In this document: piece by piece, positions 33,720-46,869 of the stretch | Numbering within the stretch: the stretch's first letter is position 1 | How the letters are laid out: each line of letters begins with the position of its first letter | The notes under the pieces: model-generated | Seen by the model: only the letters and a program-made list of their open reading frames with translations | Database searches by the model: none | Told to the model about the DNA's origin: nothing | Translations under genes and position numbers: made by a program | Source of the DNA: an uncultured Alphaproteobacteria bacterium | GTDB taxonomy: Bacteria; Electryoneota; RPQS01 | Direction: 5' to 3' | Assembly: GCA_964587105.1 (NCBI GenBank) | Contig: CAZPKG010000005.1 | Location: 132,540-196,539, forward strand | Length of the DNA stretch: 64,000 bases

Positions 33720-34778
33720 TCACTTAATCTTGATGGACACGCTAACGCGGTGCGTTGTACCCAAGTCACGCGCATAGTAGGCGTAATCCGCGCTCATGCG
33801 CCAAAACATGACCCCTGCACCAGCGGACCACTCGTCATGCCAAAATCCGCCGCGCAGTGCAATGACATTCTCAAAATTATACTCAAGCCCAACGTGGCGG
33901 CGGCGTTCGTACCGCTTTTCCGTTTCATAGGCCAGGGTCATACGGCTGTTGCGTCCCGGCATCTTCTGTTCGAGAGCAACGGAGCTATAGAAGTTCGTCG
34001 GAACGGCATCTTTGACTCCTTCACCCCAATCAAGTTCGGTGCGGGTAAGGTCTTTTACCACAGCTCCGTAACACAACTTGGCGCGCCAATTTTCTAAGAC
34101 GATTTCGTCAAGCGGAAAGCGGAATTGAATTCCTGCATCAGCGCCGATTCCGGTGCCCGAAGATTCACCGAGCTTGTTGTTTAGCAGCTTAAGGTTGACA
34201 CCCACCGGCATTTCCAAGGGAACCGTGAAGTACGACCAGCCGAGATCAAGCGTGAACTGATTGTACTTGGCAAATGTAAAGAAGATTGCGGATTCGGTGT
34301 CCGAGAATAGGCCCGCGGGAGACGCTCCGGTGGCCGCCAGATATTCCTGAACCGAGTTGATGAATATAGTATCGCCATCTACAACCACGAAGCGAAACGC
34401 CGGCGCGCGCGCCAATATTTCAGCGACAGCCAAATCGTAATCGGGATGCTTCTGAATATCCGGCACGCCGAGTCTGACATAGTTAATTGCAAACACGGAT
34501 CCCGTCACAGGGAGCGTGACACCGGTTGACGAGAAATTCGCCAAGCCGTCCCACAGATCGGCATACATTCCCGTCGCCTGAATTCCGGTAACGTAACCCA
34601 TACCTGCGGGATTCCAGTAGAAGCTCGAACCGTCGTAGGTGTGTGCGGCCATCGCGCCACCCATCGCAATTCCGCGCGCACCAACACCGAGTTCGAGAAA
34701 CTCCCCTGCGTACTTCGCGGCATGTGCGGGAATAACGATGATCAACGCAAGAGTGAGGATGCGGATGAGATTCTTCAT
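33720..34778 (-). CDS. porV: PorV-like (FadL/TodX family) outer-membrane beta-barrel; T9SS shuttle protein candidate
   Basis: N-terminus AGEFLELGVGARGIAMGGAMAA..DGSSFYWNPAGMG matches the PorV/LptO and FadL signature (..ARP.AMG.A.....D.SA.YWNPAGL). It ends in an aromatic-rich beta-strand. It lies directly downstream of porU with a 4-nt overlap. Confidence 0.55.
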   Translation of the reverse strand: MKNLIRILTLALIIVIPAHAAKYAGEFLELGVGARGIAMGGAMAAHTYDGSSFYWNPAGMGYVTGIQATGMYADLWDGLANFSSTGVTLPVTGSVFAINYVRLGVPDIQKHPDYDLAVAEILARAPAFRFVVVDGDTIFINSVQEYLAATGASPAGLFSDTESAIFFTFAKYNQFTLDLGWSYFTVPLEMPVGVNLKLLNNKLGESSGTGIGADAGIQFRFPLDEIVLENWRAKLCYGAVVKDLTRTELDWGEGVKDAVPTNFYSSVALEQKMPGRNSRMTLAYETEKRYERRRHVGLEYNFENVIALRGGFWHDEWSAGAGVMFWRMSADYAYYARDLGTTHRVSVSIKIK

Positions 34779-37700
34779 TTGCGCACCTTCGCGATCTTAA
34801 CGGTTTCTTCGATGGTTTGCTCGCCCTGTTTGGCTGTAATACGCGCGAAGTACACTCCATTGGCGACTTCATTTCCGTCGTCGTCACGGCCATCCCACTG
34901 CTGCGTCCGATAGTTTGCGGTGGACCGTTCAGAATCGTGGAGCGTTTTGATGAGTCGTCCCGACACAGTGTAAATCTTGATTTGCGTGAAGTCGTCGGTT
35001 ACGCCGGTCAGAACGTAAGCAATCGTCGTGTTGCTCTCGAACGGGTTAGGATAGTTGATGGCCCATTCAAAACCGAAGTCTCCGCGAACTTCAAACTGCG
35101 TCACATAGGTGGAGGTATTGCCATGATTGTCCGTGGCAAATATCTTGACTTCGTGCTGACCCGTGTCCAAGTCAGGTTCGATCATTGCGGTCAGGCTGGA
35201 ACCTGACGTCGAAGTGTCGTTCCACGCGATCAATTCTTCACGAACAGTATCGCCATCCAGCACGACGTAAAATGCGCCGGGAGTTCGCTGGACTCCGGCC
35301 GCATCTGAGAAGGTGGCAAAGAGTTGAGGATTACGGGGCACAAGCGCGCCTTTGGTGTAGCGCAAACCGCCGACGGCGAGTTCGATATTGGGGCCGCGGC
35401 TGTCAGTTTTCTGGAAGATCCCGATTTCACCCAAGTACGGAATATCTCCCGTAGCTCGCAGGCGCCAGATGATAAACGTGTCAAGCGGAGACGGCTGCGT
35501 CGGCACGGGAAACGCGCGCACAAATCCGATACTGTCGCGGGTGACTTCGTTATTCCTTGCCGCGAGCCAATGGTCGCGAGCGGGATCTTTGACGTAAAGT
35601 TGATAGGGCACAATCGGAACGCGGCTGCGTAATGTATCGCGTCCTTCAATTGAAACCGTGACATGTGCAGTCATGCTGTCCGATAGCGTTGCAACCGTGT
35701 CATCAAACATCGCCTTAAACGTTCCGTACGACCCTTGCGAAAACGGCTGGCGCAAACCCTGCCCCGACAACACGGCAATCTCAGCTTGTGAGTAGGTGCG
35801 TGGCTGAGTGTATCCAATCGCTGCGCTGTCCCGGTCCAGCACGTTTGGCGGAACTTGCAGGTACAGCGTGTCATTCTTCGTCAGCGACCAATAGCGATGC
35901 GGGCCGATTTGGAACGGACGCTCCAGAAAAGTTCCGCGGGGTCTTGAAGCGGGATAATAACTTGGAATTTGCAAAACGAAGTCACGGCGGTTGTTGTTCT
36001 CGCTGGACTCGTCATAGACGCTATCCGGGTCAACGATAACGGACACTTCGTAGCGACCGGGCTGGAAACTCGTGGGAATATACACTCCCTGCTCCGCTTC
36101 GCCGCTGCCAAGTGTGGAAATTGTGCTCTCCACAGTAAATGAATCAAGCACAACCGTGATGGTGTCGCCGCCCGTAATGTAAGTGGAATCTCTATCGGCA
36201 TGAAGCCGCAACTTTACGTCACCGATTGTACCGGTTACGGAGCTTCTTTCAACGCGTACAGGCTGGAAATAATACGGTCTGCGGCCGCCGCTTTCACCGG
36301 GCGACGTCGAAAGCAAGAAGTTGAGGTTGAAGTCAGGCTTCTGTTCCAGCCTTAATGCAAAGTAATCCGACTCATACTCATCTTCGCCAACCGGCTTCAC
36401 AAAGAACTTTACCCGATAGGAGCCGCCCTCAAGCTCATACGGCCCGAGCAAAGCCGGCTCTTGCCAGAAACCGGGATTGACTTGCACCATGTTCAACGTA
36501 TCGAGTCTGATCGGCCCCTGAGCAGGCGTGTAAAGGCCGCGAAAACGCACATACTCGATATTATTCTGATGCAGAATTGTTGCGCCGACCCGGAACGGCA
36601 CACCGTCATAGAGCACCGGGCCGGGAATTGGAGCGACGTCAAAAATCTGTACGGTTTCAAGACTGTCGGCAAGGAAGACCGGGAAGCAACCGATAGCATT
36701 CCGATTGAGAGTCAGGTCTGTCAGATAGACAACAACTTGGCCTCGCGGTGACACAAAACTCGGCGCAGGAATAGGGGGCGAAATCCAGTTGCGGTCAAAA
36801 ACATCATAGAATTCAATATTCTCGGGATCAAATGCCGGCGAATGCACGGAAATAAGGTTTCGGAAAACACGTCCTGACAGCGAATCCAGTCGATATCTGT
36901 ATAGTTCTTCATTGTAGGGAAGAATGTACGCTCTGGTGAGGCTGTCATCCGGTATATCCCACGGTACAGTCAACGACACTTGAAAAGTACTATCGCCGGT
37001 TGTGTCGTGCGGAGTAATGACATTCGTCTCGCCAACAATTTCAGGATCGATCACCTCGCGCGGGACAAATAGCTGAACGCCCGGATCACCAAGCAGGTTC
37101 ATCATCATCATCATCGAGTATGGCGACGTAAACGAAACCGGCGTGTTCAGCGAACTCCAGTAGCGGGTTTTGTTGAGTTGCGTGATTTCACCTAACGTGT
37201 AACCCGGTGGAGCGAGCGCGAAGTCAAACAGCTTTCTCTGCATGGCCTGACCTGCCACGGCCCACCCGACTCCAGATGAACTGTAAAATCCGATGGCTCC
37301 AACAATATCGTTATTATTGTTGCGCGTGAACATAAACGCTTCACCGAGCACGGCGGCTTGACTGCGGTCGTCAAACGCGCCGACATAGCAGGTGAAATTC
37401 GTAATGAACGGAAATGTCTCACGGTTATTCAGCAGTCGCACGCCTGATACGTCGATCAGCTTGCTGCCGGACCACACACCACCACCGCCGTGACCGTTGT
37501 AGTTCACCACAACACATCCGCGACGCAACTCATCACGCAAACGCGTCGGACCCTGTCCGCCGGGAATACTGTCCAGATACAGCCGGGTGACGTTTACACA
37601 TTCATTGTCAACAAGCTGCTGAATAGTCGGCTCAGAAAAACCCGCCGCGAAATTAAACTGATTGTCCGCAACATCCGAAATCATGAGCACGTTGCTTTGA

Positions 37701-40198
37701 AACAACCCTTCGAAATCGGGGTTGTTTTCGTACCGGATGACTTTGCCGACATACGTTTGCAATTCTTGCGGGGTGCGGCACGAGATACGGCCGACAGCAA
37801 TATCAGGAATGATGTCAAACTCTGGTCCGGAAACACAGCCGAATAGAACGTCGCCGGACGCCGTTCCAAATTCGAGCGTTGAAGGCGAAAACGACGGCAA
37901 CTGATTGCCGGGAATACTTCCTTCGCGCTGTTCAAGGACGGCGTCACCGACCAAGCAAACGTGCGTCGGACGAACATCCCAGTTGTCGTAGGCATACTTC
38001 AGGAAATCGCGGATGGCAAACGGAGTACTCAAACCACCGGAGAATTGCTCATATACTTCCGTCAACGGAACGGTCAAGACCGAGTTGTTGAAGTTGATCC
38101 GGCGGAGACTGTCGAGAATATGAATTGACGAGTCGGCAAAGTACGGATCATAGACAATCATCACATATTCTGCGCCGGGATTATTTCTCAAATCAATCTC
38201 GATCGTATCCGGAACCATTGAGAACGGATGCAACACAAAGTTCTCGCCCCACACCAGCACGTCGTGCGGCGCGTCCGCGATCATCGGGAACCGCACGGCC
38301 CAGCTTGCGCTTTCGTCAGCGGGAGTCACTCGACGCACGTCAAGTGATGTCAAACGGCTCTGCCCAAGCTTCCAGACTTGAATATTGCGCGTATTAAAAC
38401 CGCGAATGTCATAACCGACGGTATCGCGCAGCGTCGCATTGAAATCAAATCTGAACTCGCCGTTGCGCGAACGCATGTCGCGTTCATACTCCACTTCAAA
38501 CCAGTTGACCAGAATCTTGTCCGCATTTCCCGATAGCGCATTTCCGGGAACAGTAACAGTAAACGTGTTGATGCCGTTAATCAAATCTTCAGTTTGAATA
38601 TTGTTCTGCGAGCCGGAAAGTTTAGTCTGGAAGATAACTGGAGATTGCCCACCCCAGACCGCAGCCGTATCGCTACTATTTTGGCGCCCGACTGTCAAGC
38701 CGTTATCCGTCAAACCATTCAGCGAAACGGTGACATAGTGATTGAATCCGGGCGTTGCGCTGAAACCGGTAAGACAAGCGCGCACGACGACCGGTTCAAA
38801 GCTGTACGGCGGCGTAGGATTCGGGAAAGGGATAAAACCTTCGTAGTCGCGTGACGTAAGCGCGTCCACACGCTCGTCCATGAACCAATTGTCTTGAACG
38901 AGTCCGAGCGGACCCAGCCGTGTCAGCCTTTGACCAAGGAACTGTGGCGCATCACCTAACCGGTCGAAATAACGGTCGCGTTCAAAGTGAATTGTCGTGC
39001 GAACGCTGCGCTCGAGATCAAGATTCCACGTCGGCTGCCACGAACCGTTCTCTTCGCCCATCCGCAGGCCCGGCAAACCGTCGCCCCAATAGAGTTGATA
39101 GCAATTCTCAACCGTGAACGGATCTTGGTACAGAGACGGTTCGACGTCGATGAAAGTCTTTTCGTTCTTCTCACCGAAGAAATCTATGTGATCATAGAGA
39201 TCAAACCGCCCATCGGCTTGTCCGTCCACGACAATTGGGATCTCGTGACCCTTATTATAGATATGCAGGTCCCACGGAGAAATCCGGTCAATCGGCACAC
39301 CGGCCAGATGCATGTACTCACCAGTGAGCCTGACGATGCTGGTCTCACGGACGTAAATTCGCCAACTATTGACGTTGTAGATCGGGCCGTCGTGGTCGTC
39401 GAGATTTTGATTGTCTCGCGCTTCACGATGGTCAGGCGCCCGTGACGGCAAAGCTGTGTCAGCTAATTTTCCGAGCATCCCGCGCAGGGCTCTGGTCTCA
39501 TTTGCCCGGTCTGAGAGCCTCATTTCGCCATTTGCCGAATTAGGCCTGATTATTTGAATCCGTGCCTTCTTGAGGTACCGGCCTTGACCCGTTAAAGCAT
39601 TGATTTGAACGGGCCTAAGATTCAAGGCCAGCAGTCTGTGGCCGCGATAGATACCTGATTCCGAAAGCTCAACAATCCGCGTTGGCCAGAGTTCAGCCTT
39701 CTTTTCGGTGCGTAGTTGGCGCTCTCGCATCCCAACAGAGTCGCTGGAGGATTCCTTGGCCCACACGGTGTTCGGAGTTGAGGACGAGGGGCGCGGGTCC
39801 AAGATAAAATCCTCGGGCATAGGGAGGCACGGGCCGAGATCAAACGGCTCGTACTCTGCCTCAACAAGCGTGACGCTTGCCGCTCCGGGCAACGCATCGA
39901 GAAGCTCTGTCACACCGGGTAAGAGCACGACACCCGGTTCGTGAACAGGGTCACACCCAGCCATTTGAATCGCAGTGAGCATTCCGCTTTCCTGGTCGCG
40001 GATCGGTTCAAGCGGCGGGGCCACCCAATCGAGAACCACTCTCTCTCCGGAAATCTCGCGCAGCGTGATGCCGGGCTCGACCGATTTTGCAAGCTGGAGA
40101 GCTTTCTTCGTTGCCTGATTTTTGCCAGCCGAGAAGCCTTGCCAGAACAGACCGGCAAGGGCGACTAAGACTATGACTATGATACCTTTAGATTTCAT
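34775..40198 (-). CDS. porU: Peptidase C25 (gingipain-fold) T9SS sortase PorU homologue, unusually large
   Basis: C25 catalytic motifs (VVNYNGHGGGGVWSG His; ITNFTCYVGAFDD Cys). Its own T9SS C-terminal domain (YPNPFESNTTIAYVL...KIAKVRK). Signal peptide MKSKGIIVIVLVALAGLFWQGFSA. The gene order porU then porV matches Bacteroidetes. Confidence 0.7.
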   Translation of the reverse strand: MKSKGIIVIVLVALAGLFWQGFSAGKNQATKKALQLAKSVEPGITLREISGERVVLDWVAPPLEPIRDQESGMLTAIQMAGCDPVHEPGVVLLPGVTELLDALPGAASVTLVEAEYEPFDLGPCLPMPEDFILDPRPSSSTPNTVWAKESSSDSVGMRERQLRTEKKAELWPTRIVELSESGIYRGHRLLALNLRPVQINALTGQGRYLKKARIQIIRPNSANGEMRLSDRANETRALRGMLGKLADTALPSRAPDHREARDNQNLDDHDGPIYNVNSWRIYVRETSIVRLTGEYMHLAGVPIDRISPWDLHIYNKGHEIPIVVDGQADGRFDLYDHIDFFGEKNEKTFIDVEPSLYQDPFTVENCYQLYWGDGLPGLRMGEENGSWQPTWNLDLERSVRTTIHFERDRYFDRLGDAPQFLGQRLTRLGPLGLVQDNWFMDERVDALTSRDYEGFIPFPNPTPPYSFEPVVVRACLTGFSATPGFNHYVTVSLNGLTDNGLTVGRQNSSDTAAVWGGQSPVIFQTKLSGSQNNIQTEDLINGINTFTVTVPGNALSGNADKILVNWFEVEYERDMRSRNGEFRFDFNATLRDTVGYDIRGFNTRNIQVWKLGQSRLTSLDVRRVTPADESASWAVRFPMIADAPHDVLVWGENFVLHPFSMVPDTIEIDLRNNPGAEYVMIVYDPYFADSSIHILDSLRRINFNNSVLTVPLTEVYEQFSGGLSTPFAIRDFLKYAYDNWDVRPTHVCLVGDAVLEQREGSIPGNQLPSFSPSTLEFGTASGDVLFGCVSGPEFDIIPDIAVGRISCRTPQELQTYVGKVIRYENNPDFEGLFQSNVLMISDVADNQFNFAAGFSEPTIQQLVDNECVNVTRLYLDSIPGGQGPTRLRDELRRGCVVVNYNGHGGGGVWSGSKLIDVSGVRLLNNRETFPFITNFTCYVGAFDDRSQAAVLGEAFMFTRNNNNDIVGAIGFYSSSGVGWAVAGQAMQRKLFDFALAPPGYTLGEITQLNKTRYWSSLNTPVSFTSPYSMMMMMNLLGDPGVQLFVPREVIDPEIVGETNVITPHDTTGDSTFQVSLTVPWDIPDDSLTRAYILPYNEELYRYRLDSLSGRVFRNLISVHSPAFDPENIEFYDVFDRNWISPPIPAPSFVSPRGQVVVYLTDLTLNRNAIGCFPVFLADSLETVQIFDVAPIPGPVLYDGVPFRVGATILHQNNIEYVRFRGLYTPAQGPIRLDTLNMVQVNPGFWQEPALLGPYELEGGSYRVKFFVKPVGEDEYESDYFALRLEQKPDFNLNFLLSTSPGESGGRRPYYFQPVRVERSSVTGTIGDVKLRLHADRDSTYITGGDTITVVLDSFTVESTISTLGSGEAEQGVYIPTSFQPGRYEVSVIVDPDSVYDESSENNNRRDFVLQIPSYYPASRPRGTFLERPFQIGPHRYWSLTKNDTLYLQVPPNVLDRDSAAIGYTQPRTYSQAEIAVLSGQGLRQPFSQGSYGTFKAMFDDTVATLSDSMTAHVTVSIEGRDTLRSRVPIVPYQLYVKDPARDHWLAARNNEVTRDSIGFVRAFPVPTQPSPLDTFIIWRLRATGDIPYLGEIGIFQKTDSRGPNIELAVGGLRYTKGALVPRNPQLFATFSDAAGVQRTPGAFYVVLDGDTVREELIAWNDTSTSGSSLTAMIEPDLDTGQHEVKIFATDNHGNTSTYVTQFEVRGDFGFEWAINYPNPFESNTTIAYVLTGVTDDFTQIKIYTVSGRLIKTLHDSERSTANYRTQQWDGRDDDGNEVANGVYFARITAKQGEQTIEETVKIAKVRK

Positions 40199-40537
40199 GT
40201 TGCTATAGAGTTGGCCACAAACAAAAAATTCGCTGACCTCTCCTCCATTCCATGCAACGCCCCAAAGGGAGGCCATCCCTGAGGGATAGCTTCCAGAGTT
40301 CTACGAGGTTACATCGAACGGAAGAAAAGTTAGCGAATTTTCGCTGGTGGTCTCTCGTTTCCGAATTACCTCGGAGTATAGGTATCTTTTTCCAGCTTGT
40401 CAAGCGAAAAGTGGGGCTTAAACCTAATATTTCCGTGCTTATGGCGCGCATTGGGATATTCAGGCTTCATAGTGCAAATGCCAGACCTCGGTTGACCCAC
40501 TTCCCTCAGAAAGTGGGGGGAAAGTGGGGTTTTTGCC

Positions 40538-40603: not shown

Positions 40604-41983
40604 TTGGGAGGGCCGTTCATGTCACTTGCCGTAAATTTCGGCTTTGCTTATTCCAAGAAGCTTGCCGGCCACGGAATTTCCAATGAGATGCTGAAGCCCG
40701 CGCTCGAACGCACGGCTAAGGCTTTGGATCATATTCGCACCGAACGAGGAGCCAACAAACTCCCCTATTTGGACTTGCCTGAAGATGGCAAGACCAAGGC
40801 CGCCTGCAAAGAGCTTGCGGATAGATTCGCAGGTTATGAGAATTTCCTGCTTTCAGGCATCGGTGGCAGTTCGCTTGGGCCATTGGCGATTTTCAATGCG
40901 CTCGGTCACCCGCTGCACAATATGCTCTCCGGAGCCAAGCGCAAGAATCATCCACGATTTTTCGCGCTCGACAATGTCGATCCCGTGCAAGCGGACGCGC
41001 TGTTCAATTTCTGCAAGCCGGAAAAAACGGTTTACAATATCATCTCCAAGAGCGGCGCAACGGCTGAAACGGCTGCGGCGTCGCTGATCATTTTTGATCT
41101 GCTGAAGAAGCGGATGGGCAATGATTGGAAGAAGAATATCGTCTGCACGACGGATCCGACGAGCGGCGATTTGCGCAAGCTCTGCAACGATGAAAAATTT
41201 CAGACGCTGCCGCTGCATCCGGGAGTCGGCGGACGCTTTTCGGTTCTGACTCCGGTGGGCCTATTCCCATCCTATTGCTTGGGCTTTGACGTGGATGCGA
41301 TGCTTGCCGGTGCGGCGGAAATGCGCGAGCGTTGTTTGGATAGCGACGTACAAAAAAATCCCGCCGCGCAGATGGCCGCCTTGCTCTATCTGTTCGACAG
41401 CACGCAGCACAAGAAGATGCACGTGATGATGGCCTACGCGAATGGACTTTACGGCATGGCCGATTGGTTCAGGCAGTTGTGGGCCGAATCGCTTGGTAAA
41501 GAGGCCGATAACGAAGGCCGTATCGTGAACGTCGGCCCGACTCCGCTGAAAGCTCTCGGCGCGACCGACCAGCATTCGCAAGTTCAACTCTACATCGAAG
41601 GCCCCTACGACAAGGTGTTCCTGTTCCTCGAATGCAAGAAATTCGGTAAGCGCATGAAACTCCCCGAACTTTATGACAACGTTTCTTCGTTGAACTATCT
41701 TGGCGGGCAAACGATGAACAAACTCATCGCCGCCGAATTTGCCGCGACGCGCGAAGCTCTCGCTCAGCGCGGACGTCCTTCGATTTCCATCACTTTCCCC
41801 GAAGTTGACGCACATGCCGTCGGTGAATTTTTCATGCTATGGGAAATCACGACATCCATCGCAGGCGCGCTCTACCGCATCAACCCCTACGACCAGCCCG
41901 GCGTCGAATTAGGCAAGCAGTTGACCTACGGCTTGATGGGCAGAGCGGGTTTTGAAGACAAGGCCAAAGGGATTAAGGTGTAA
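40604..41983 (+). CDS. pgi: Glucose-6-phosphate isomerase (short bacterial/archaeal PGI type)
   Basis: Two SIS domains: GIGGSSLGP, GGRFSVLTPVG. Confidence 0.85.
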   Translation: MGGPFMSLAVNFGFAYSKKLAGHGISNEMLKPALERTAKALDHIRTERGANKLPYLDLPEDGKTKAACKELADRFAGYENFLLSGIGGSSLGPLAIFNALGHPLHNMLSGAKRKNHPRFFALDNVDPVQADALFNFCKPEKTVYNIISKSGATAETAAASLIIFDLLKKRMGNDWKKNIVCTTDPTSGDLRKLCNDEKFQTLPLHPGVGGRFSVLTPVGLFPSYCLGFDVDAMLAGAAEMRERCLDSDVQKNPAAQMAALLYLFDSTQHKKMHVMMAYANGLYGMADWFRQLWAESLGKEADNEGRIVNVGPTPLKALGATDQHSQVQLYIEGPYDKVFLFLECKKFGKRMKLPELYDNVSSLNYLGGQTMNKLIAAEFAATREALAQRGRPSISITFPEVDAHAVGEFFMLWEITTSIAGALYRINPYDQPGVELGKQLTYGLMGRAGFEDKAKGIKV

Positions 41984-41984
41984 T

Positions 41985-43187
41985 ATGAAGCTATCCGTAC
42001 AAAACTTCCGCTCGATCAAGGACGAGACATTTGATCTTGCCCCCATCACGGTCTTCTATGGACCGAACGGCTCAGGCAAATCAACAGTTTTGTACTCGCT
42101 TCTGACGTTCAAGAATATTGTTTTGAATCCGAATCAAAGGGTGGAGGCATTTTTTGACTACGGGTTCTTGAATTTAGGTGATTTTCGCGATGTAGTCTTT
42201 AATCATGACAGAAGATCGAAAATCCGTCTCAAGTTATTAGAACCTGAGAACAACCCAAAAGCATTCTACGAGATATCATTCAGCGGTGAGACTGCTCAAG
42301 CAGAAATATCGTTTGATTATCCTCTATTTGACAAACCTATTGGTGCCAAAACAGACATATACTTCCCATACAGGTTGACTCAGCAGGTTTTCGTAGAAAC
42401 TAAGTTCCGTGACGGTGACGCAATAACGCTATATTGGAACGGTATTACGTTTACAGGATCGGCGATGCGTACAGATATTGCAGACGTACATGCAGATAAG
42501 ATTCGCGAGGCTGGGTCTTTTGCTCAAACAGAGCTCAACCATGTTGGAATTGTGCCACTGAAACGGGGTTTCACGCGACCTTTTTATTCACCTCTTCCAA
42601 TTTCTACATCACAGACTACCGAGGAAGATATTGCAACGTTTCTTGCTATTGAAAGATACTTCGACGGGAAGCTAAGTGGCTATTTAGAAGAAATCGCAAA
42701 GAGAGAATTTCGAGTCAATTCAGCGGGGGGAACTGGTGTTTACTCATTTGATCTTATTGATCGAGCTTCACGAGTTCCATGCAACATAGTAAATGATGGA
42801 TTTGGAATAAATCAATTAGTTCACTTGCTTGCGATATGCCTGCAAGATAGGCATTCGTTTGTTTGTATTGAGGAACCAGAAATCCATCTTCACCCTTCCG
42901 CAGTTCGCGCACTTGCTCAAGCCTTTATTAAGATGACAAAGGAAGAGGGAAAGCGCTTTGTCATTGCGACACATAGCGAAGTATTTATCTCGACGTTGCT
43001 TGCTGAAGTTGCAAGGGGCAACCTTAAGGCTGACGATTTGAGTTGTTATCTGACAACAAAGGAAGGCAAGGAATCCAAGTTCGAAAAGCAGGAAGTGAAC
43101 GAGAAGGGGCAGATTTCAGGAGGGTTGCAAGCCTTTGCTCAAGCTGAGCTTGAAAACACGAAAATCTTGCTTGGATTGTCTGACTAA
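41985..43187 (+). CDS. ABC-type AAA ATPase of the OLD/PtuA/AriA class (AAA_15/21-like)
   Basis: N-terminus MKLSVQNFRSIK...ITVFYGPNGSGKSTVL (Walker A). C-terminal D-loop/H-loop CIEEPEIHLHPS and ATHSEVFI. No fused nuclease domain. Lies in a low-GC segment. Confidence 0.7.
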   Translation: MKLSVQNFRSIKDETFDLAPITVFYGPNGSGKSTVLYSLLTFKNIVLNPNQRVEAFFDYGFLNLGDFRDVVFNHDRRSKIRLKLLEPENNPKAFYEISFSGETAQAEISFDYPLFDKPIGAKTDIYFPYRLTQQVFVETKFRDGDAITLYWNGITFTGSAMRTDIADVHADKIREAGSFAQTELNHVGIVPLKRGFTRPFYSPLPISTSQTTEEDIATFLAIERYFDGKLSGYLEEIAKREFRVNSAGGTGVYSFDLIDRASRVPCNIVNDGFGINQLVHLLAICLQDRHSFVCIEEPEIHLHPSAVRALAQAFIKMTKEEGKRFVIATHSEVFISTLLAEVARGNLKADDLSCYLTTKEGKESKFEKQEVNEKGQISGGLQAFAQAELENTKILLGLSD

Positions 43188-43198
43188 TTATCCGATTT

Positions 43199-43657
43199 AT
43201 GCGGATTGTCATCAATGAATGGTTGATCGAAGACGCTCTGGGAAACAACGGAGAACATCGACAAGCCTTGTCACTCTTAGTGTTCGAACAGTTTACAGTT
43301 CGCGAAGATTTGTTGATTGTGCTTGAAAAAAGCAAATGGACATGGAAGGCGCTTCAGTTGTGGAAGCTCCAAAATCAAGGAGCGCGCAGGGTATCAAAAC
43401 TCTTCATGGGTTCAGTTTGGGAAGATCCCGCAAACTGCGAGAGGATTCCAAGAGACGAACGTTTTGCTTTGCCGGAGTCTCTAAGCCATGTGGATGACGA
43501 CGACCGCTATCTTATCGAAGCATATTTGAACGGGAATGCCGAACTACTTGTGACGACGGACAAGCAACTAATCGAATTCTGCAAAAGATCTGAGAATCCT
43601 CGAGTAGTTGCTATCCACCGCGACGACTTCCTCCGCTCATGGAACATCGCACCCTAA
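43199..43657 (+). CDS. Small protein with PIN-like motifs; candidate nuclease partner of the ATPase
   Basis: 152 aa with RIVINEWLIEDA at the N-terminus (Asn where the first PIN Asp is expected), then HVDDDDRYLIEAYL and LLVTTDKQL. No detectable homology beyond this pattern. Confidence 0.4.
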   Translation: MRIVINEWLIEDALGNNGEHRQALSLLVFEQFTVREDLLIVLEKSKWTWKALQLWKLQNQGARRVSKLFMGSVWEDPANCERIPRDERFALPESLSHVDDDDRYLIEAYLNGNAELLVTTDKQLIEFCKRSENPRVVAIHRDDFLRSWNIAP

Positions 43658-44193
43658 TCATACTTTTCATCTCTGCCACCCTTTCCGGTTGCGCGCACAC
43701 ATTCACAATCGAAAAGAATGCGCCGCCGCAAAGATATGCTGAAGCGCAAAATTTCTTGCATCAGCGTCCGGCGAGATTGTTTACGAAAGTCGGAAAGCAC
43801 ATGCGCGTCACCGATTGGCACATCGGTCCTGATTCAACCGTGTTTCGGATTGATGGTGCCAGCGACAGAATTGTGATGCTGAACGACCGCATTCGCACGC
43901 TGACCACACAGGATTCTCGCAGGGGTTTGCGCGACGGAGCGCTGATCGGCGGATTCAGTGGTGGCATTGTCGGGCTGTTTATCGGGTCAATCATGGCAAC
44001 AATGCAAGGGAGTTGCGACGATTGTAGTATGAATGATCATAGTGGAACGTATGTGTTTTCAGGACTCGGCATCGGTGCAGGCATCGGCGCTGTCACCGGA
44101 GCACTAATCGGTACACATACCGGCGCAATGCGTACTGTTGTTTTTCACCCCGACCCGCACGACCCACGCCGCTGGGAATATTTGCCTCGATAG
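43639..44193 (+). CDS. Glycine-zipper lipoprotein (paralogue 1)
   Basis: Lipobox LSGCAH. Conserved VTDWHIGPDSTVFRIDGASDRIVMLNDRIRTLTTQD. Glycine-zipper GALIGGFSGGIVGLFIGSIM. Ends RRWEYLPR. Confidence 0.5.
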   Translation: MEHRTLIILFISATLSGCAHTFTIEKNAPPQRYAEAQNFLHQRPARLFTKVGKHMRVTDWHIGPDSTVFRIDGASDRIVMLNDRIRTLTTQDSRRGLRDGALIGGFSGGIVGLFIGSIMATMQGSCDDCSMNDHSGTYVFSGLGIGAGIGAVTGALIGTHTGAMRTVVFHPDPHDPRRWEYLPR

Positions 44194-44249
44194 ATAAGAC
44201 AATTATTGATCTTTACAAGTAGATTCGGAACACACCTTAGAGGTGGCTT

Positions 44250-44870
44250 ATGGATTCCGACAAGATACGCCGGATTAGAATTGTAATGAGAAGTTTATCG
44301 CTTTTTATTTTGATAATATCCCTCTCCGGCTGCGCGCACGTCTTGTATATCGAGAAAAGTGCACCTTCTGAAAAGTATGTGCAGGCGCAAACTTTTTTGC
44401 ATCCGAAGCCTGCAAATCTGTATCTGAATACCGGGAAGAAATTTCTGGTAACGGATTTGCACATCGGGCAAGACTCGACAGTGTTTCGGATTGACGGAAC
44501 TACAGATCGAATTGTGATGATGAACGACAAGATTCGCAGCATCACAACACAAGACGAGCGGAAAGCGACAATCAAAGGCGCGAAAATCGGAGCTGTTGTC
44601 GGAGGTGTTCTTGGTCTTGCGGTCGGTGGCTTGATTTCTTCTTGGGACAATTCCAAAGATTGCGAAACCGGACCCGCAGATTACGACTACGGGAGTTGCG
44701 GTCAAGATGACGACAATGACGCTTTGATTGTACTTTCGAGTATTGGTTCTGGAATTCTTGTCGGAGCTTTGACAGGCGGAGTCATCGGCAGTCAATCAGG
44801 AACGTATCGAACGATTATGCTAAACTGGGATCCGAAAGACGCAAGACGATGGGAATATTTGCCTCGATAA
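44250..44870 (+). CDS. Glycine-zipper lipoprotein (paralogue 2)
   Basis: Same architecture as 43639-44193 (LSGCAH, VTDLHIGQDSTVFRIDGTTDRIVMMNDKIRSITTQD, GAKIGAVVGGVLGLAVGG, ends RRWEYLPR) but lower GC. Confidence 0.5.
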   Translation: MDSDKIRRIRIVMRSLSLFILIISLSGCAHVLYIEKSAPSEKYVQAQTFLHPKPANLYLNTGKKFLVTDLHIGQDSTVFRIDGTTDRIVMMNDKIRSITTQDERKATIKGAKIGAVVGGVLGLAVGGLISSWDNSKDCETGPADYDYGSCGQDDDNDALIVLSSIGSGILVGALTGGVIGSQSGTYRTIMLNWDPKDARRWEYLPR

Positions 44871-45394
44871 TTATTTTGATGATGCCGATTTCGATAATGG
44901 CTTCCGACCTTACTTCAATCCCCTTTCAAACCAATTCCGGTGACACGACGACGCTTGAATCTTTCAAGGGTCAAGTTGTGCTGATTGTGAACACAGCCAG
45001 CGAGTGCGGGCACACGCCGCAATATGCCGGTATGGAAGCGATTTACGAGAAATATAGAAGTCAAGGCTTCACGATAGTCGCTTTTCCGTCGAACGATTTC
45101 GGCGAACAAGAACCCGGTACGGACGCGCAAATCAGAAATTTCTGCACGACGATGTACGGTGTGCAATTCCCGTTGATGAAGAAGATTTTGGTGTTGGGTG
45201 AGAACAAGCATCCGCTCTACAAATATCTGGTCGAGCACAGCGAACCCGCCGACGAAATTCAGTGGAACTTCACGAAGTTCTTGCTTGACCGCAACGGAAA
45301 CGTTGCCGCGCGATTTCACTACAAAGTGAAGCCCGATTCCCCCGAAGTAATTGCGAAAATTGAAGAGTTGCTGGGAGATAAACCTTCGGAATGA
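44849..45394 (+). CDS. Glutathione peroxidase family protein
   Basis: VVLIVNTASECGHTPQY, FPSNDFGEQEPG, and WNFTKFL motifs. Confidence 0.85.
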   Translation: MGIFASIIILMMPISIMASDLTSIPFQTNSGDTTTLESFKGQVVLIVNTASECGHTPQYAGMEAIYEKYRSQGFTIVAFPSNDFGEQEPGTDAQIRNFCTTMYGVQFPLMKKILVLGENKHPLYKYLVEHSEPADEIQWNFTKFLLDRNGNVAARFHYKVKPDSPEVIAKIEELLGDKPSE

Positions 45395-46869
45395 CACGCA
45401 GTCCGGTTTTTCTGCCCGCTTCAGATAAGTACCTCCCGTTAGCCTTCGCTCTGCTGCCCGTTGTGGTTGTATTTTGGGCCACACAGGTTTGGGGGATCGC
45501 GGTATCCAAGGAACAATTTGTTTGGCTTGCGCAGGCCAACGAACTTGCCGCCGGTGCAAAGCTCTCGTTTGCCAATGCAAATTATCCCGCCGGTCCTCTC
45601 TGGCCGCAGCTGTTGTCATATTTCGCCAAAGGCGGCTTCGCGATTGAGTTTGTCGCGCGCATTTGGCAAGGTTTGATGCTTGGATCGCTGCTCTATACCA
45701 TCACGCGGTTTTATTTGCGGCATTTGCTCTCGCGCGTCGTCGTTGCCGGAGCATCGCTCGCAGCGTTTACGGGATTCCTGCTATTGTCGGAAGTTTTCTC
45801 GCTGTCACCCTTGCCGACGGCGCTCTTGCTTTGCACGTTAGGACTCTTGGCGCTCGCGAGATTCTTGCTCGAAGAAGAGATTCTGGCTTTTCTCGCCGCC
45901 GCTCTTTCTATTGGAGCCGCTACACTCATCTGGATTCCAGCACTTGTAATCGCGTTGGGTTGCGCACTGGCAATCTTGCTGGGCGGACGCGGCAATCTCG
46001 GACGCAGATTTTCCGGCGTCATCTTTTTCAGCGCGGCGGCAGTTGCTCCCGCCCTTTATTTTTTATCACAAGTATCGGCGCCGCGCTATGAATGGTTCGG
46101 CGGCATTCTTCCGGCGGTAGATGCAATTTCCGCTTGGACGATGTGGGCAACGTGGCCGGTTTGGCTGCGTGTTTTGTTGACGCTCGCGGTATTGATAAGT
46201 TTGCTCTATGTCTATCTGGCCACTCGCGGCCCGGCGGGTATCGGTCCTGCGCTGAAGCGGCGTGAATTGCAAGTTTGGATTCTGCTCTGTTTTGTCTGGC
46301 TGTTGCACCTGTTGCTGTTTCCTTTGACAACCACATTGGTGGTGCTCATTCCGGCATTTGTCTTGTGGCCCGCGCTCGGAATTGACAGCTTCAGAGATTT
46401 TACTCCCGTGTCAACAGCATGGGCCGGCAAAGGCACCGCTGTTGCCGTCTGGTCATGTTTGATACTTTTACTGATTCCGGTTTGGCAAGCGGGCGCATTC
46501 GGTTGGAAGACCTTTCAAGCAGGTGACGGCGTGCGCGGATTTGAATTTCAATCCTCTCCCCTGCTGACTGAACTACGCGCTGATCAGAAACGTCCGCTCT
46601 ATTCTGATGATCCTGAACTCTTGACTTTCGCGCTAAATCGCGAGATTAAGAAATTGCCGGATGACTTGAAATCGCTTGAGTTGGTAGAAAGCCGCGTCGT
46701 CATTCTTGGAGATTCCTGCCCTCCCGGAATTTGCAAGGATGACAGCGCCACTCATCCAACGCTAACATTTGCTTCGAAACTTGCCGTGCGCGAAGGGTTA
46801 CTTTACGATGTAACATTCCGCGCACCGGAACCCGCCTTGACCGCCTCGGATTCCCTCACAATTCCGTAA
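45391..46869 (+). CDS. Polytopic integral membrane protein (possibly GT-C-like)
   Basis: About 12 hydrophobic helices. No firm family assignment. Confidence 0.45.
   Translation: MTRSPVFLPASDKYLPLAFALLPVVVVFWATQVWGIAVSKEQFVWLAQANELAAGAKLSFANANYPAGPLWPQLLSYFAKGGFAIEFVARIWQGLMLGSLLYTITRFYLRHLLSRVVVAGASLAAFTGFLLLSEVFSLSPLPTALLLCTLGLLALARFLLEEEILAFLAAALSIGAATLIWIPALVIALGCALAILLGGRGNLGRRFSGVIFFSAAAVAPALYFLSQVSAPRYEWFGGILPAVDAISAWTMWATWPVWLRVLLTLAVLISLLYVYLATRGPAGIGPALKRRELQVWILLCFVWLLHLLLFPLTTTLVVLIPAFVLWPALGIDSFRDFTPVSTAWAGKGTAVAVWSCLILLLIPVWQAGAFGWKTFQAGDGVRGFEFQSSPLLTELRADQKRPLYSDDPELLTFALNREIKKLPDDLKSLELVESRVVILGDSCPPGICKDDSATHPTLTFASKLAVREGLLYDVTFRAPEPALTASDSLTIP

Follow-up and report, generated by a model that had tools for sequence, protein, structure and literature searches.

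An accessory ATPase–PIN gene pair at a pgi–gpx insertion hot spot, a candidate nuclease-based immunity cassette

The window analysed here, a stretch of 64,000 nucleotides from an uncultured bacterium, contains between positions 41985 and 44870 an ABC-type ATPase gene, a gene for a small protein with a PIN-like fold and two lipoprotein genes (Table 1). Pfam recognized the flanking products as PGI and GSHPx, confirming the pgi and gpx flanks named in a preliminary description of this DNA, and the reading frames were found at the positions given there. The ATPase gene begins 1 nt past the pgi stop codon in a co-directional pgi-to-gpx array, a placement from which the inserted pair is probably co-transcribed with pgi in the source lineage; a scan for promoters and terminators returned no more sites than expected by chance and was uninformative. 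Two details needed revision. The ATPase frame stands, though its length of 411 aa does not: that version starts at a TTG (41952) inside pgi, whereas homologues favour the ATG at 41985 and hence a protein of 400 aa. The PIN gene indeed adjoins it, across a gap of 11 rather than 12 nt, and its 3' end contains the start codon of lipoprotein 1, the two genes overlapping by 19 nt.

Table 1. Genes and sequence features at the pgi–gpx locus, in window coordinates.
Feature	Position	Strand	Basis
pgi, product PGI	upstream of 41985-44870		Pfam
ABC ATPase, OLD/AAA_15 class, 400 aa, closest to Menshen NsnB	41985..43187	+	Pfam, PADLOC
Walker A, GPNGSGKST (K32)	42060..42086	+	translation
PLKRGFT, R194 invariant	42555..42575	+	homologue alignment, translation
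NDGFGINQ, GxG variant of the ABC signature motif	42792..42815	+	translation
Walker B and D-loop region, EEPEIHLHP	42870..42896	+	translation
H-loop, ATHS (H330)	42966..42977	+	homologue alignment, translation
C-terminal beta-hairpin (residues 352-371) and terminal helix (382-396)	43038..43187	+	AF2 secondary structure
Stand-alone PIN-fold protein, 152 aa, presumed effector, unannotated family	43199..43657	+	predicted structure
N6-E7-W8, end of beta-1, first PIN acidic position	43214..43222	+	family alignment
K50, 99% conserved	43346..43348	+	family alignment, 174 members
D102, 99% conserved, third PIN acidic position; followed by Y104, L105	43502..43504	+	family alignment
T119-T120-D121, [ST]-x-D after beta-4, fourth PIN acidic position	43553..43561	+	family alignment
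Lipoprotein 1, 184 aa, glycine zipper, resident gene	43639..44193	+	orthologues in relatives
Lipoprotein 2, extra paralogue, 195 aa from ATG 44283 (206 aa from 44250)	44283..44870	+	paralogy
gpx, product GSHPx	downstream of 41985-44870		Pfam

The whole interval had been described as a single island about 15% lower in GC than its surroundings. A drop is present: GC is 0.461 over the block and 0.441 over the ATPase and PIN genes, against 0.517-0.529 in the flanks, corresponding to relative reductions of about 12% and 16%, respectively (6-9 GC points). Its supposed uniformity does not hold, with values of 0.430 for the ATPase, 0.473 for the PIN gene, 0.532 (flank level) for lipoprotein 1, 0.464 for lipoprotein 2, 0.478 for gpx and 0.541 for pgi. 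Nor is the interval one island. Comparison with relatives and their junction sequences reveals that only 41985-43657, the two-gene cassette of ATPase and PIN, is accessory; its deficit of 8-9 GC points relative to the flanks recurs in both cassette-bearing relatives, L001 and L092.

Inspection of the pgi–gpx locus in related genomes, a check proposed in the preliminary description, showed pgi, a lipoprotein gene and gpx without the pair in L094, L098 and L097 (PGI 96, 94 and 85% identical to that of the window), while in L096 the same gap holds a Y1 transposase and REP-like repeats. Because close relatives carry the locus without the pair, one of them with a transposase in its place, we conclude that 41985-43657 is an accessory cassette at an insertion hot spot. 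The cassette ends are not bordered by direct or inverted repeats, and no adjoining integrase was found. Between the window and L001, PGI is 94% identical, the ATPase 57% and the PIN protein 76%; the corresponding values for L092 are 87, 56 and 43%. Comparison with L001 shows saturation at synonymous sites of the cassette (pS 0.75-0.77, compared with 0.46-0.56 in pgi, lipoprotein 1 and gpx and 0.67-0.70 in two other flanking genes), so that dN/dS is unable to tell ancient alleles apart from rapid evolution.

The two lipoproteins are paralogues, as proposed (48% identity, E 4e-58, with LSGCAH and a terminal RRWEYLPR in both). The further suggestion that they might be cargo or membrane effectors fails, since lipoproteins are kept at the pgi–gpx locus in relatives that lack the pair: an orthologue of lipoprotein 1 (61-68% identity) directly follows pgi in the cassette-free L094, L097 and L098. 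The number of lipoprotein copies is one in L001 and, save for a remnant, zero in L092. We also considered the lipoproteins as part of the module and rejected this on their presence in cassette-free relatives, their copy number of 0-2, the flank-level GC of lipoprotein 1 and their absence beside the pair in the loci searched from other phyla (L011-L090). They are resident genes, and both lie outside the cassette, neither cargo nor effectors.

Beyond this lineage, the ATPase and PIN genes are strictly linked. In each of the 25 uncut loci with an ATPase above 300 bits against the family HMM, a PIN family gene lies directly downstream of it; the spacing, measured for 21 pairs, ranges from -11 to +18 nt, and the hosts include Chloroflexota, Spirochaetota, WOR-3, Acidobacteriota, Bacteroidota, Gammaproteobacteria and Thermoplasmatales archaea; failure of the two families to co-occur had been named beforehand as grounds for abandoning the two-gene proposal. 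Clustering of the flanking genes in these 25 loci recovered the ATPase and PIN families and no third conserved gene. Divergence of the two proteins is correlated across loci (Mantel r 0.80; none of 2,000 permutations as high), a pattern also expected of a cassette that moved as a unit, so that it supports joint inheritance and does not prove interaction. Among cultured hosts no intact copy came to light; the only isolate genome found, that of Paraflavitalea (L035), has split ORFs. In 20 other genomes housekeeping genes predominate in the neighbourhood, and only about 7 of 141 neighbours match defence models (one pAgo and SIR2 pair, one AbiE pair, one extra ATPase, PDC-S01 and mad2), making the defence-island signal weak. 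No close relatives appeared among the matches listed from IMG/VR viral contigs.

Pfam AAA_21 (4e-24) and AAA_15 (1e-23) both match the entire length of the ATPase, in agreement with the earlier assignment of this protein as a stand-alone OLD/AAA_15-type ABC ATPase without a fused nuclease. Its top PADLOC matches are all defence ABC ATPases, led by NsnB of the Menshen system (3e-40, 137 bits, profile positions 4-327 of 345) and including PDC-M55A, HEC-03 and AriA; each of the 29 family members matches NsnB better than any other PADLOC model, at scores that are moderate (3e-40 for the best). The family spans many phyla at about 40-57% identity. The Walker A, Walker B/D-loop and H-loop motifs reported previously are all present, and every catalytic motif is invariant across the 29 homologues, including G26, N28, G31, K32 and S33 in Walker A, N270, G272, G274 and Q277 in the signature region, and E296, E297, P298, E299, H301, L302 and H303 in the Walker B/D-loop region. 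Judged by position only, R194 lies in the stretch where the Q-loop Gln is replaced by Arg in NsnB and WonA. The AF2 model (pLDDT 87) has its best Foldseek matches in SMC, Rad50, OLD and PtuA heads, and confidence drops to a pLDDT of 53-60 at the C-terminal end. This end contains further invariant residues (Y355, K359, G375, G379, G380, L381, F384, E388 and E390), and analogy with the DUF3696 of NsnB and with WonA makes its hairpin and helix a candidate docking element for the PIN protein; Pfam DUF3696 (PF12476) itself gave no match to the ATPase at E<=0.1 and is absent from the precomputed Pfam assignments of its homologues.

Such an ATPase might instead serve a housekeeping role, as a RecF/SbcC/SMC-like partner of a processing nuclease in nucleic-acid maintenance or RNA processing, co-expressed with pgi. 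The SMC and Rad50 heads among its structural matches would suit such a role, as would the mostly metabolic neighbours in other genomes and, in three related genomes, the position of the pair 1 nt past pgi in a co-directional housekeeping array. We consider it very improbable nonetheless: the pair is missing from relatives with 85-96% identical PGI, has no conserved context across phyla, deviates in GC and encodes proteins that diverge far faster than their flanks, and the NCBIfam RecF and Rad50 models match the P-loop only, at scores far below their cut-offs. No characterized housekeeping family fits; a match of the ATPase to such a family, in a conserved housekeeping context, was among the outcomes that the preliminary description had listed as speaking against its proposal.

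The 152-aa protein is more elusive at the sequence level. Queried singly or as a profile against Pfam, NCBIfam, PADLOC and PDB sequences it gave no significant match, the Pfam PIN_3 hit staying below threshold (E 0.03); the family surfaced only by exhaustive search, a word-indexed search having returned two proteins. The predicted structure nevertheless bears out the PIN-like fold suspected earlier. The model alternates beta-strands and alpha-helices in a Rossmann-like order, with acidic residues after beta-1, beta-3 and beta-4, and the fold is predicted at high confidence, yet Foldseek support is marginal (E about 0.01, TM about 0.5). The Asn at the first catalytic position and the acidic motifs noted from the translation are in place as N6, DDDD99-102 and TTD119-121, and the weak PIN_3 and TIGR00305 alignments span the D102 region. 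Among 174 family members, position 6 is N in 59% and D in 37%, E7 is conserved in 92%, W8 in 95%, T/S119 in 97% and D121 in 96%. Three canonical PIN positions and K50 are thus near-invariant in a family whose mean identity is only about 29-34%; in the model, K50 appears to occupy the helix after beta-2, where canonical PINs have their second acidic residue, a Glu. Family members measure about 94-175 aa (exhaustive-search matches and 50 of 50 profile matches), and in neither set was a fusion to an effector domain found; the sole long match, P0146, proved to be a spurious repeat protein and was discarded.

With Asn in 59% of members at position 1 and Lys in place of Glu, the site is non-canonical and catalysis is not assured. 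The protein may therefore be a dead adaptor or ligand-binding module, in which case the pair would sense or regulate and depend on an effector encoded elsewhere, or activity would reside in the ATPase. Similarity to Menshen lends this some weight: NsnB, the closest PADLOC match of the ATPase, is predicted to bind the PIN-like domain of NsnC, and such inPIN domains are reported to lack catalytic residues and are thought to be inactive adaptors (PMC12065111). Here, unlike in inPINs, the acidic residues of the family are retained, with E7, D102, T/S119 and D121 kept at 92-99%. Moreover, with no third conserved gene and no fusion, an adaptor would leave the system without any effector, and we regard this explanation as unlikely.

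The resemblance to Menshen extends further. NsnB has GxG instead of SGG and Arg instead of the Q-loop Gln (PMC12065111); the ATPase described here, besides its near full-length match to the NsnB model, has the GxG motif and a short C-terminal extension, and the gene directly downstream starts with, and in this case consists of, a PIN-like fold. By contrast, NsnA (ParB-DUF262) is missing, with pgi in the upstream position and no third gene conserved in the 25 loci; the partner is PIN-only, without the C-terminal nuclease domain of NsnC; Walker B carries EE rather than EN; and DUF3696 goes unmatched. None of the PADLOC NsnC models was matched.

The preliminary description held that a PIN partner fits no named pair, a view now outdated: HEC-03 combines an ABC ATPase with a VapC-like PIN protein in a system with demonstrated defence, for which both genes are required (bioRxiv 10.1101/2024.01.29.577857), and pairs of OLD-ABC proteins with PIN endoRNases have been noted (PMC12839542). 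What is new here is thus the specific family, not the architecture of adjacent stand-alone ATPase and PIN proteins. The ATPase matches the ATPase-sized HEC-03 model at 94 bits, chiefly in the C-terminal third and not as its best match; 0 of 80 PIN family members match HEC-03 models at E<=0.01, and the VapC-like PIN of that system differs from the N/D-E, K, D and TxD pattern seen here. PARIS and Septu likewise use an ABC ATPase oligomer to govern a separate nuclease. Partial matches to AriA (79-94 bits) and PtuA (45 bits) models are accompanied by different partners: AriB is a Toprim/DUF4435 protein, whose PADLOC models the PIN protein does not match, and PtuB is an HNH protein. WonAB also has an OLD-type ABC ATPase, on whose dimerized C-terminal extensions a small nuclease is predicted to be seated, and its activation blocks translation (PMC12137116). 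K34, R182, E300 and H333 of WonA lie at positions similar to K32, R194, E297 and H330, whereas the WonAB effector has a PD-(D/E)xK rather than a PIN fold. Models for WonAB, PD-T4-4 and 'OLD-ABC plus novel REase' were not among the top matches of the ATPase in PADLOC, the one sequence comparison made with them.

Building on the two-gene linkage, correlated divergence, folds, intact motifs and accessory status of the pair, we favour, with modest confidence, the interpretation that 41985-43657 is a self-contained, horizontally spread cassette encoding an ATPase-gated nuclease immunity module of the abortive-infection type. The 400-aa OLD/NsnB-like ATPase would form ATP-dependent dimers or tetramers and hold the 152-aa PIN protein by its C-terminal hairpin and helix; an invader cue would be sensed, and ATP binding or hydrolysis would activate or free the PIN protein, whose site (N/D-E, K, D, T-x-D) might then cut RNA and so stop translation. 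The physical interaction, nuclease activity, trigger and phage protection are extrapolated from HEC-03, WonAB, PARIS, Septu and Menshen.

A PIN toxin neutralized by its neighbour might instead belong to a selfish addiction cassette, which would persist by post-segregational killing and bring no anti-phage benefit. We find this distinctly unlikely. The loci have no conserved small VapB-like ORF upstream of the PIN gene; that position is held by a 400-aa ABC ATPase with all catalytic motifs conserved, and the canonical D-E-D-D quartet of VapC-type proteins is altered (N/D at position 1, K50 for Glu). In the comparable WonAB, the ATPase is needed for toxicity, ruling out simple sequestration (PMC12137116). 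Toxin–antitoxin and abortive-infection roles overlap.

More tentatively, NsnB-like ATPases with stand-alone PIN partners might constitute a distinct, as yet unnamed defence family of bacteria and archaea, and might represent the catalytically active, ancestor-like minimal core that gave rise to NsnB–NsnC of Menshen. The PIN domain would then have been demoted to an adaptor in Menshen after nuclease fusion and the gain of the NsnA sensor, and the family could have been overlooked because most of its members belong to uncultured lineages and lie away from defence islands.

If active, the pair would extend the ABC-ATPase defence superfamily by a compact family of ATPase-gated PIN nucleases, whose PIN partner has no model in Pfam or PADLOC 2.0. 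Its members are found in Chloroflexota, Bacteroidota, Acidobacteriota, Spirochaetota and archaea, groups in which little of the defence repertoire has been charted. With just two proteins, the system is also a convenient one in which to study the control of a PIN domain by NsnB-type ATPases, a question that applies to Menshen as well. The pgi–gpx locus itself illustrates an insertion hot spot clearly, since empty, cassette-filled and transposase-filled versions of one site occur in related genomes.

The ABC ATPase and the 152-aa protein encoded directly behind it form a strict two-gene module. Scanning one genome per species gave 80 loci, and HMMs of both families run on all ORFs placed a gene of the 152-aa (PIN) family directly downstream in 25 of 25 uncut loci with an ATPase above 300 bits (a 786-bp fragment, L033, falls outside this set), with spacings between -11 and +18 nt in the 21 pairs for which they were determined. 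The hosts span Anaerolineae, Dehalococcoidia, SAR202, Spirochaetota, WOR-3, Acidobacteriota, Bacteroidota, one gammaproteobacterium and one Thermoplasmatales archaeon, so that the co-occurrence on which an earlier proposal of a defence module depended is borne out; clustering of all flanking genes revealed no third conserved family. Pairwise identities of the two proteins are correlated (Mantel r 0.80, reached by 0 of 2,000 permutations), which fits joint inheritance and transfer, although correlation alone does not prove interaction.

In the window, the genes from pgi to gpx all run in the same direction with very short gaps. The downstream gene for a 492-aa membrane protein overlaps gpx by 4 nt, the two together spanning 44849-46869. 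Everything between pgi and at least 46869 resembles a single long co-directional array, within which a scan found no convincing terminator. The Peptidase_C25 gene upstream of pgi is kept in all relatives; its product, with a type IX secretion tail, suggests an FCB-group host.

Features of the window locus and of loci from other genomes
Feature	Position	GC	Junction or remark
Peptidase_C25 (gingipain-like) protein, 1833 aa	window 34775-40276 (-)		type IX secretion C-terminal tail
pgi	window 40619-41983	0.541	1 nt to ABC ATPase
ABC ATPase, 400 aa	window 41985-43187	0.430	11 nt to 152-aa ORF
152-aa ORF (PIN)	window 43199-43657	0.473	19-nt overlap with lipoprotein 1
lipoprotein 1	window 43639-44193	0.532	about 56-89 nt to lipoprotein 2
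lipoprotein 2	window 44250 or 44283 to 44870	0.464	22-nt overlap with gpx
gpx	window 44849-45394	0.478	array runs on beyond
lipoprotein remnant	L092:9669-9740		after PIN gene
Y1 transposase ORF and REP-like repeats	L096:6363-7104		pgi/lipoprotein gap
second ABC ATPase	L012:4132-5214		just upstream of ATPase-PIN pair
sister-clade examples	L038:5989-7511; L045:5989-7439		ATPase, then ORF of about 158 aa

The preliminary description had joined four genes, lipoproteins included, in one low-GC module between pgi and gpx. Anchoring on PGI in metagenomes, we found relatives with a pgi-lipoprotein(-gpx) arrangement from which both ATPase and PIN genes are missing: L094 (PGI 96% identical), L098 (94%) and L097 (85%), with gpx visible in the latter two only, the short L094 contig stopping within the lipoprotein region. 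In all three the lipoprotein gene comes with a GGAGG ribosome-binding site of its own. A further relative, L096 (PGI 85% identical), has, in the same pgi/lipoprotein gap, an IS200/RAYT-like Y1 transposase ORF (...VMPDHIHFIARM...) and, behind it, two REP-like repeats, each about 80 nt long, which marks the gap as a recurrent insertion site. Together these loci indicate that pgi-lipoprotein-gpx is the resident state and the gap an insertion hot spot. The insert is 41985-43657 only, and no terminal repeats were found at its ends. The unit is therefore two genes; the lipoproteins, which are indeed paralogues (48% identity), are residents rather than cargo or effectors, occurring without the pair in L094, L097 and L098 and being absent from the other-phyla loci searched (L011-L090). 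Low GC likewise holds for the cassette (0.441 versus 0.52-0.53 in the flanks) but not uniformly for the block, lipoprotein 1 standing at 0.532.

In cassette-bearing genomes the lipoprotein start is rebuilt within the 3' end of the PIN gene (43639-43657 in the window), and the signal-peptide N-terminus of lipoprotein 1 is unlike that of cassette-free relatives; insertion apparently remodelled the 5' end of this gene, which would tie its translation to the cassette. Two cassette-bearing relatives, L001 and L092, share the order C25 peptidase-pgi-ATPase-PIN-gpx. L001 retains one lipoprotein gene; L092 has lost it, keeping just a truncated signal peptide (..LLSGCAQTFAIKK, stop). Identities to the window are 94% for PGI, 57% for the ATPase and 76% for the PIN protein in L001, and 87%, 56% and 43% in L092, so divergence in the cassette proteins far outpaces that of their flanks; with synonymous sites saturated, allele age lies beyond the resolution of this comparison.

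The 152-aa protein matched nothing significant in sequence libraries, and a word-indexed search returned only itself and one 76% relative. Exhaustive HMMER searching recovered 212 representative clusters, the best 150 of them about 95-175 aa long bar one spurious 724-aa repeat protein, and a later profile search of the family found only unnamed stand-alone proteins (about 94-168 aa) without a Pfam domain. The PIN-like fold suspected earlier is supported by an AlphaFold2 model built on an 80-sequence alignment (pLDDT 96.7) and by the Foldseek ranking, albeit with E near 0.01 and TM near 0.5; on this model, the protein is a divergent PIN in a family without annotation. Across 174 members, position 6 is N (59%) or D (37%), and E7 (92%), W8 (95%), D12 (86%), S/T45 (86%), K50 (99%), D102 (99%), Y104 (98%), L105 (99%), T/S119 (97%) and D121 (96%) are conserved. 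Projected on the secondary structure of the model, these would follow strands beta-1 and beta-4 and lie within the helix that succeeds beta-2 and at the start of the one that succeeds beta-3, presumably the canonical catalytic positions with the usual Glu replaced by Lys. So non-canonical a site counts against defence, and might be read as that of an inactive adaptor whose effector is unlinked, a reading that must accommodate the conserved positions and that we consider unlikely. No PADLOC model matched the family relevantly; JetB and Csn2 each matched one member at chance level.

The ATPase is covered over its full length by AAA_21 and AAA_15, with no further Pfam domain. It has hundreds of full-length relatives, 40-57% identical, in widely differing phyla; across 29 homologues the ATP-site motifs and a C-terminal block are invariant. 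Among PADLOC models it matches Menshen NsnB best (3e-40, over nearly the whole length), with PDC-M55A, HEC-03 and AriA next; the leading matches are all defence ABC ATPases. The structure model (pLDDT 87) resembles SMC, Rad50, OLD and PtuA heads, its best match being 5h68, the reference structure given for NsnB (PMC12065111). The preliminary description was largely correct, its quoted motifs all being found in the translated sequence, and its PIN fold and linkage standing, but not its four-gene unit.

Menshen comprises NsnA (ParB-DUF262), NsnB (AAA_15 + DUF3696), which is predicted to grip the inPIN domain with its C-termini, and NsnC, an inactive PIN with a C-terminal nuclease (PMC12065111). 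The window locus lacks both NsnA and the NsnC nuclease domain, and its PIN family site is conserved whereas that of Menshen is degenerate; the pair is therefore not a Menshen system. Because the Menshen survey was seeded from NsnA (PMC12065111), NsnA-less pairs would escape it. The most attractive idea is that ours may be a minimal, catalytically active counterpart of the NsnB-NsnC core. The claim that a PIN partner fits no named pair fails on HEC-03, an ABC ATPase with a VapC-like PIN, experimentally defensive and requiring both genes (bioRxiv 10.1101/2024.01.29.577857). Pairs of OLD-ABC ATPases with PIN endoRNases are mentioned in a survey by the Aravind laboratory (PMC12839542), and in WonAB an OLD-type ATPase works with a small nuclease that, by prediction, sits on the C-terminal extensions of the ATPase, activation leading to translation arrest (PMC12137116). 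Architecture and logic are thus already known: judged by sequence the family is distinct, and the cassette is a variant within the ABC-ATPase + nuclease defence superfamily, no new kind of system.

We favour, with moderate confidence, an immunity module of the abortive-infection type in which the ATPase gates a PIN nuclease. A C-terminal hairpin and helix of the ATPase (residues 352-396) would hold the PIN protein, which would cleave RNA once the module is triggered, protecting the host. This defence reading is reasonable. What the analysis itself shows is that the two genes are linked and diverge in step, which folds they encode, that their motifs are intact, and that the pair is accessory, fast-diverging and of deviant GC. 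Against the defence reading, neighbourhoods in other genomes are mostly housekeeping genes, only about 7 of 141 neighbours match defence models, and no viral carriage of the pair appears among the IMG/VR matches listed. A housekeeping role for the pair would suit such neighbourhoods, sits poorly with its accessory status and seems very improbable; a purely selfish toxin-antitoxin cassette is quite unlikely. Nor do the close matches include an intact copy from a cultured strain: the sole isolate genome, L035 (Paraflavitalea speifideaquila BL16E, NZ_CP135920.1), has a split copy. There, as in L023 and L031, ATPase and/or PIN ORFs lie in two pieces, which could be pseudogenisation or assembly error.

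In a Spirochaetota MAG (L012), the pair is preceded by another ABC ATPase from the same broad cluster, which may be the source of the AbiLi and PDC-M38A neighbour matches in the PADLOC scan. A more distant sister clade of NsnB-like ATPases (L038-L053; 144-171 bits to PADLOC NsnB), mainly from Dehalococcoidia and archaea, likewise has a downstream ORF of roughly 158 aa, which matches the PIN-family HMM weakly (E 1e-7 to 1e-3) and no PADLOC model; these loci probably represent another branch of the ATPase-PIN pair, one that has diverged further.
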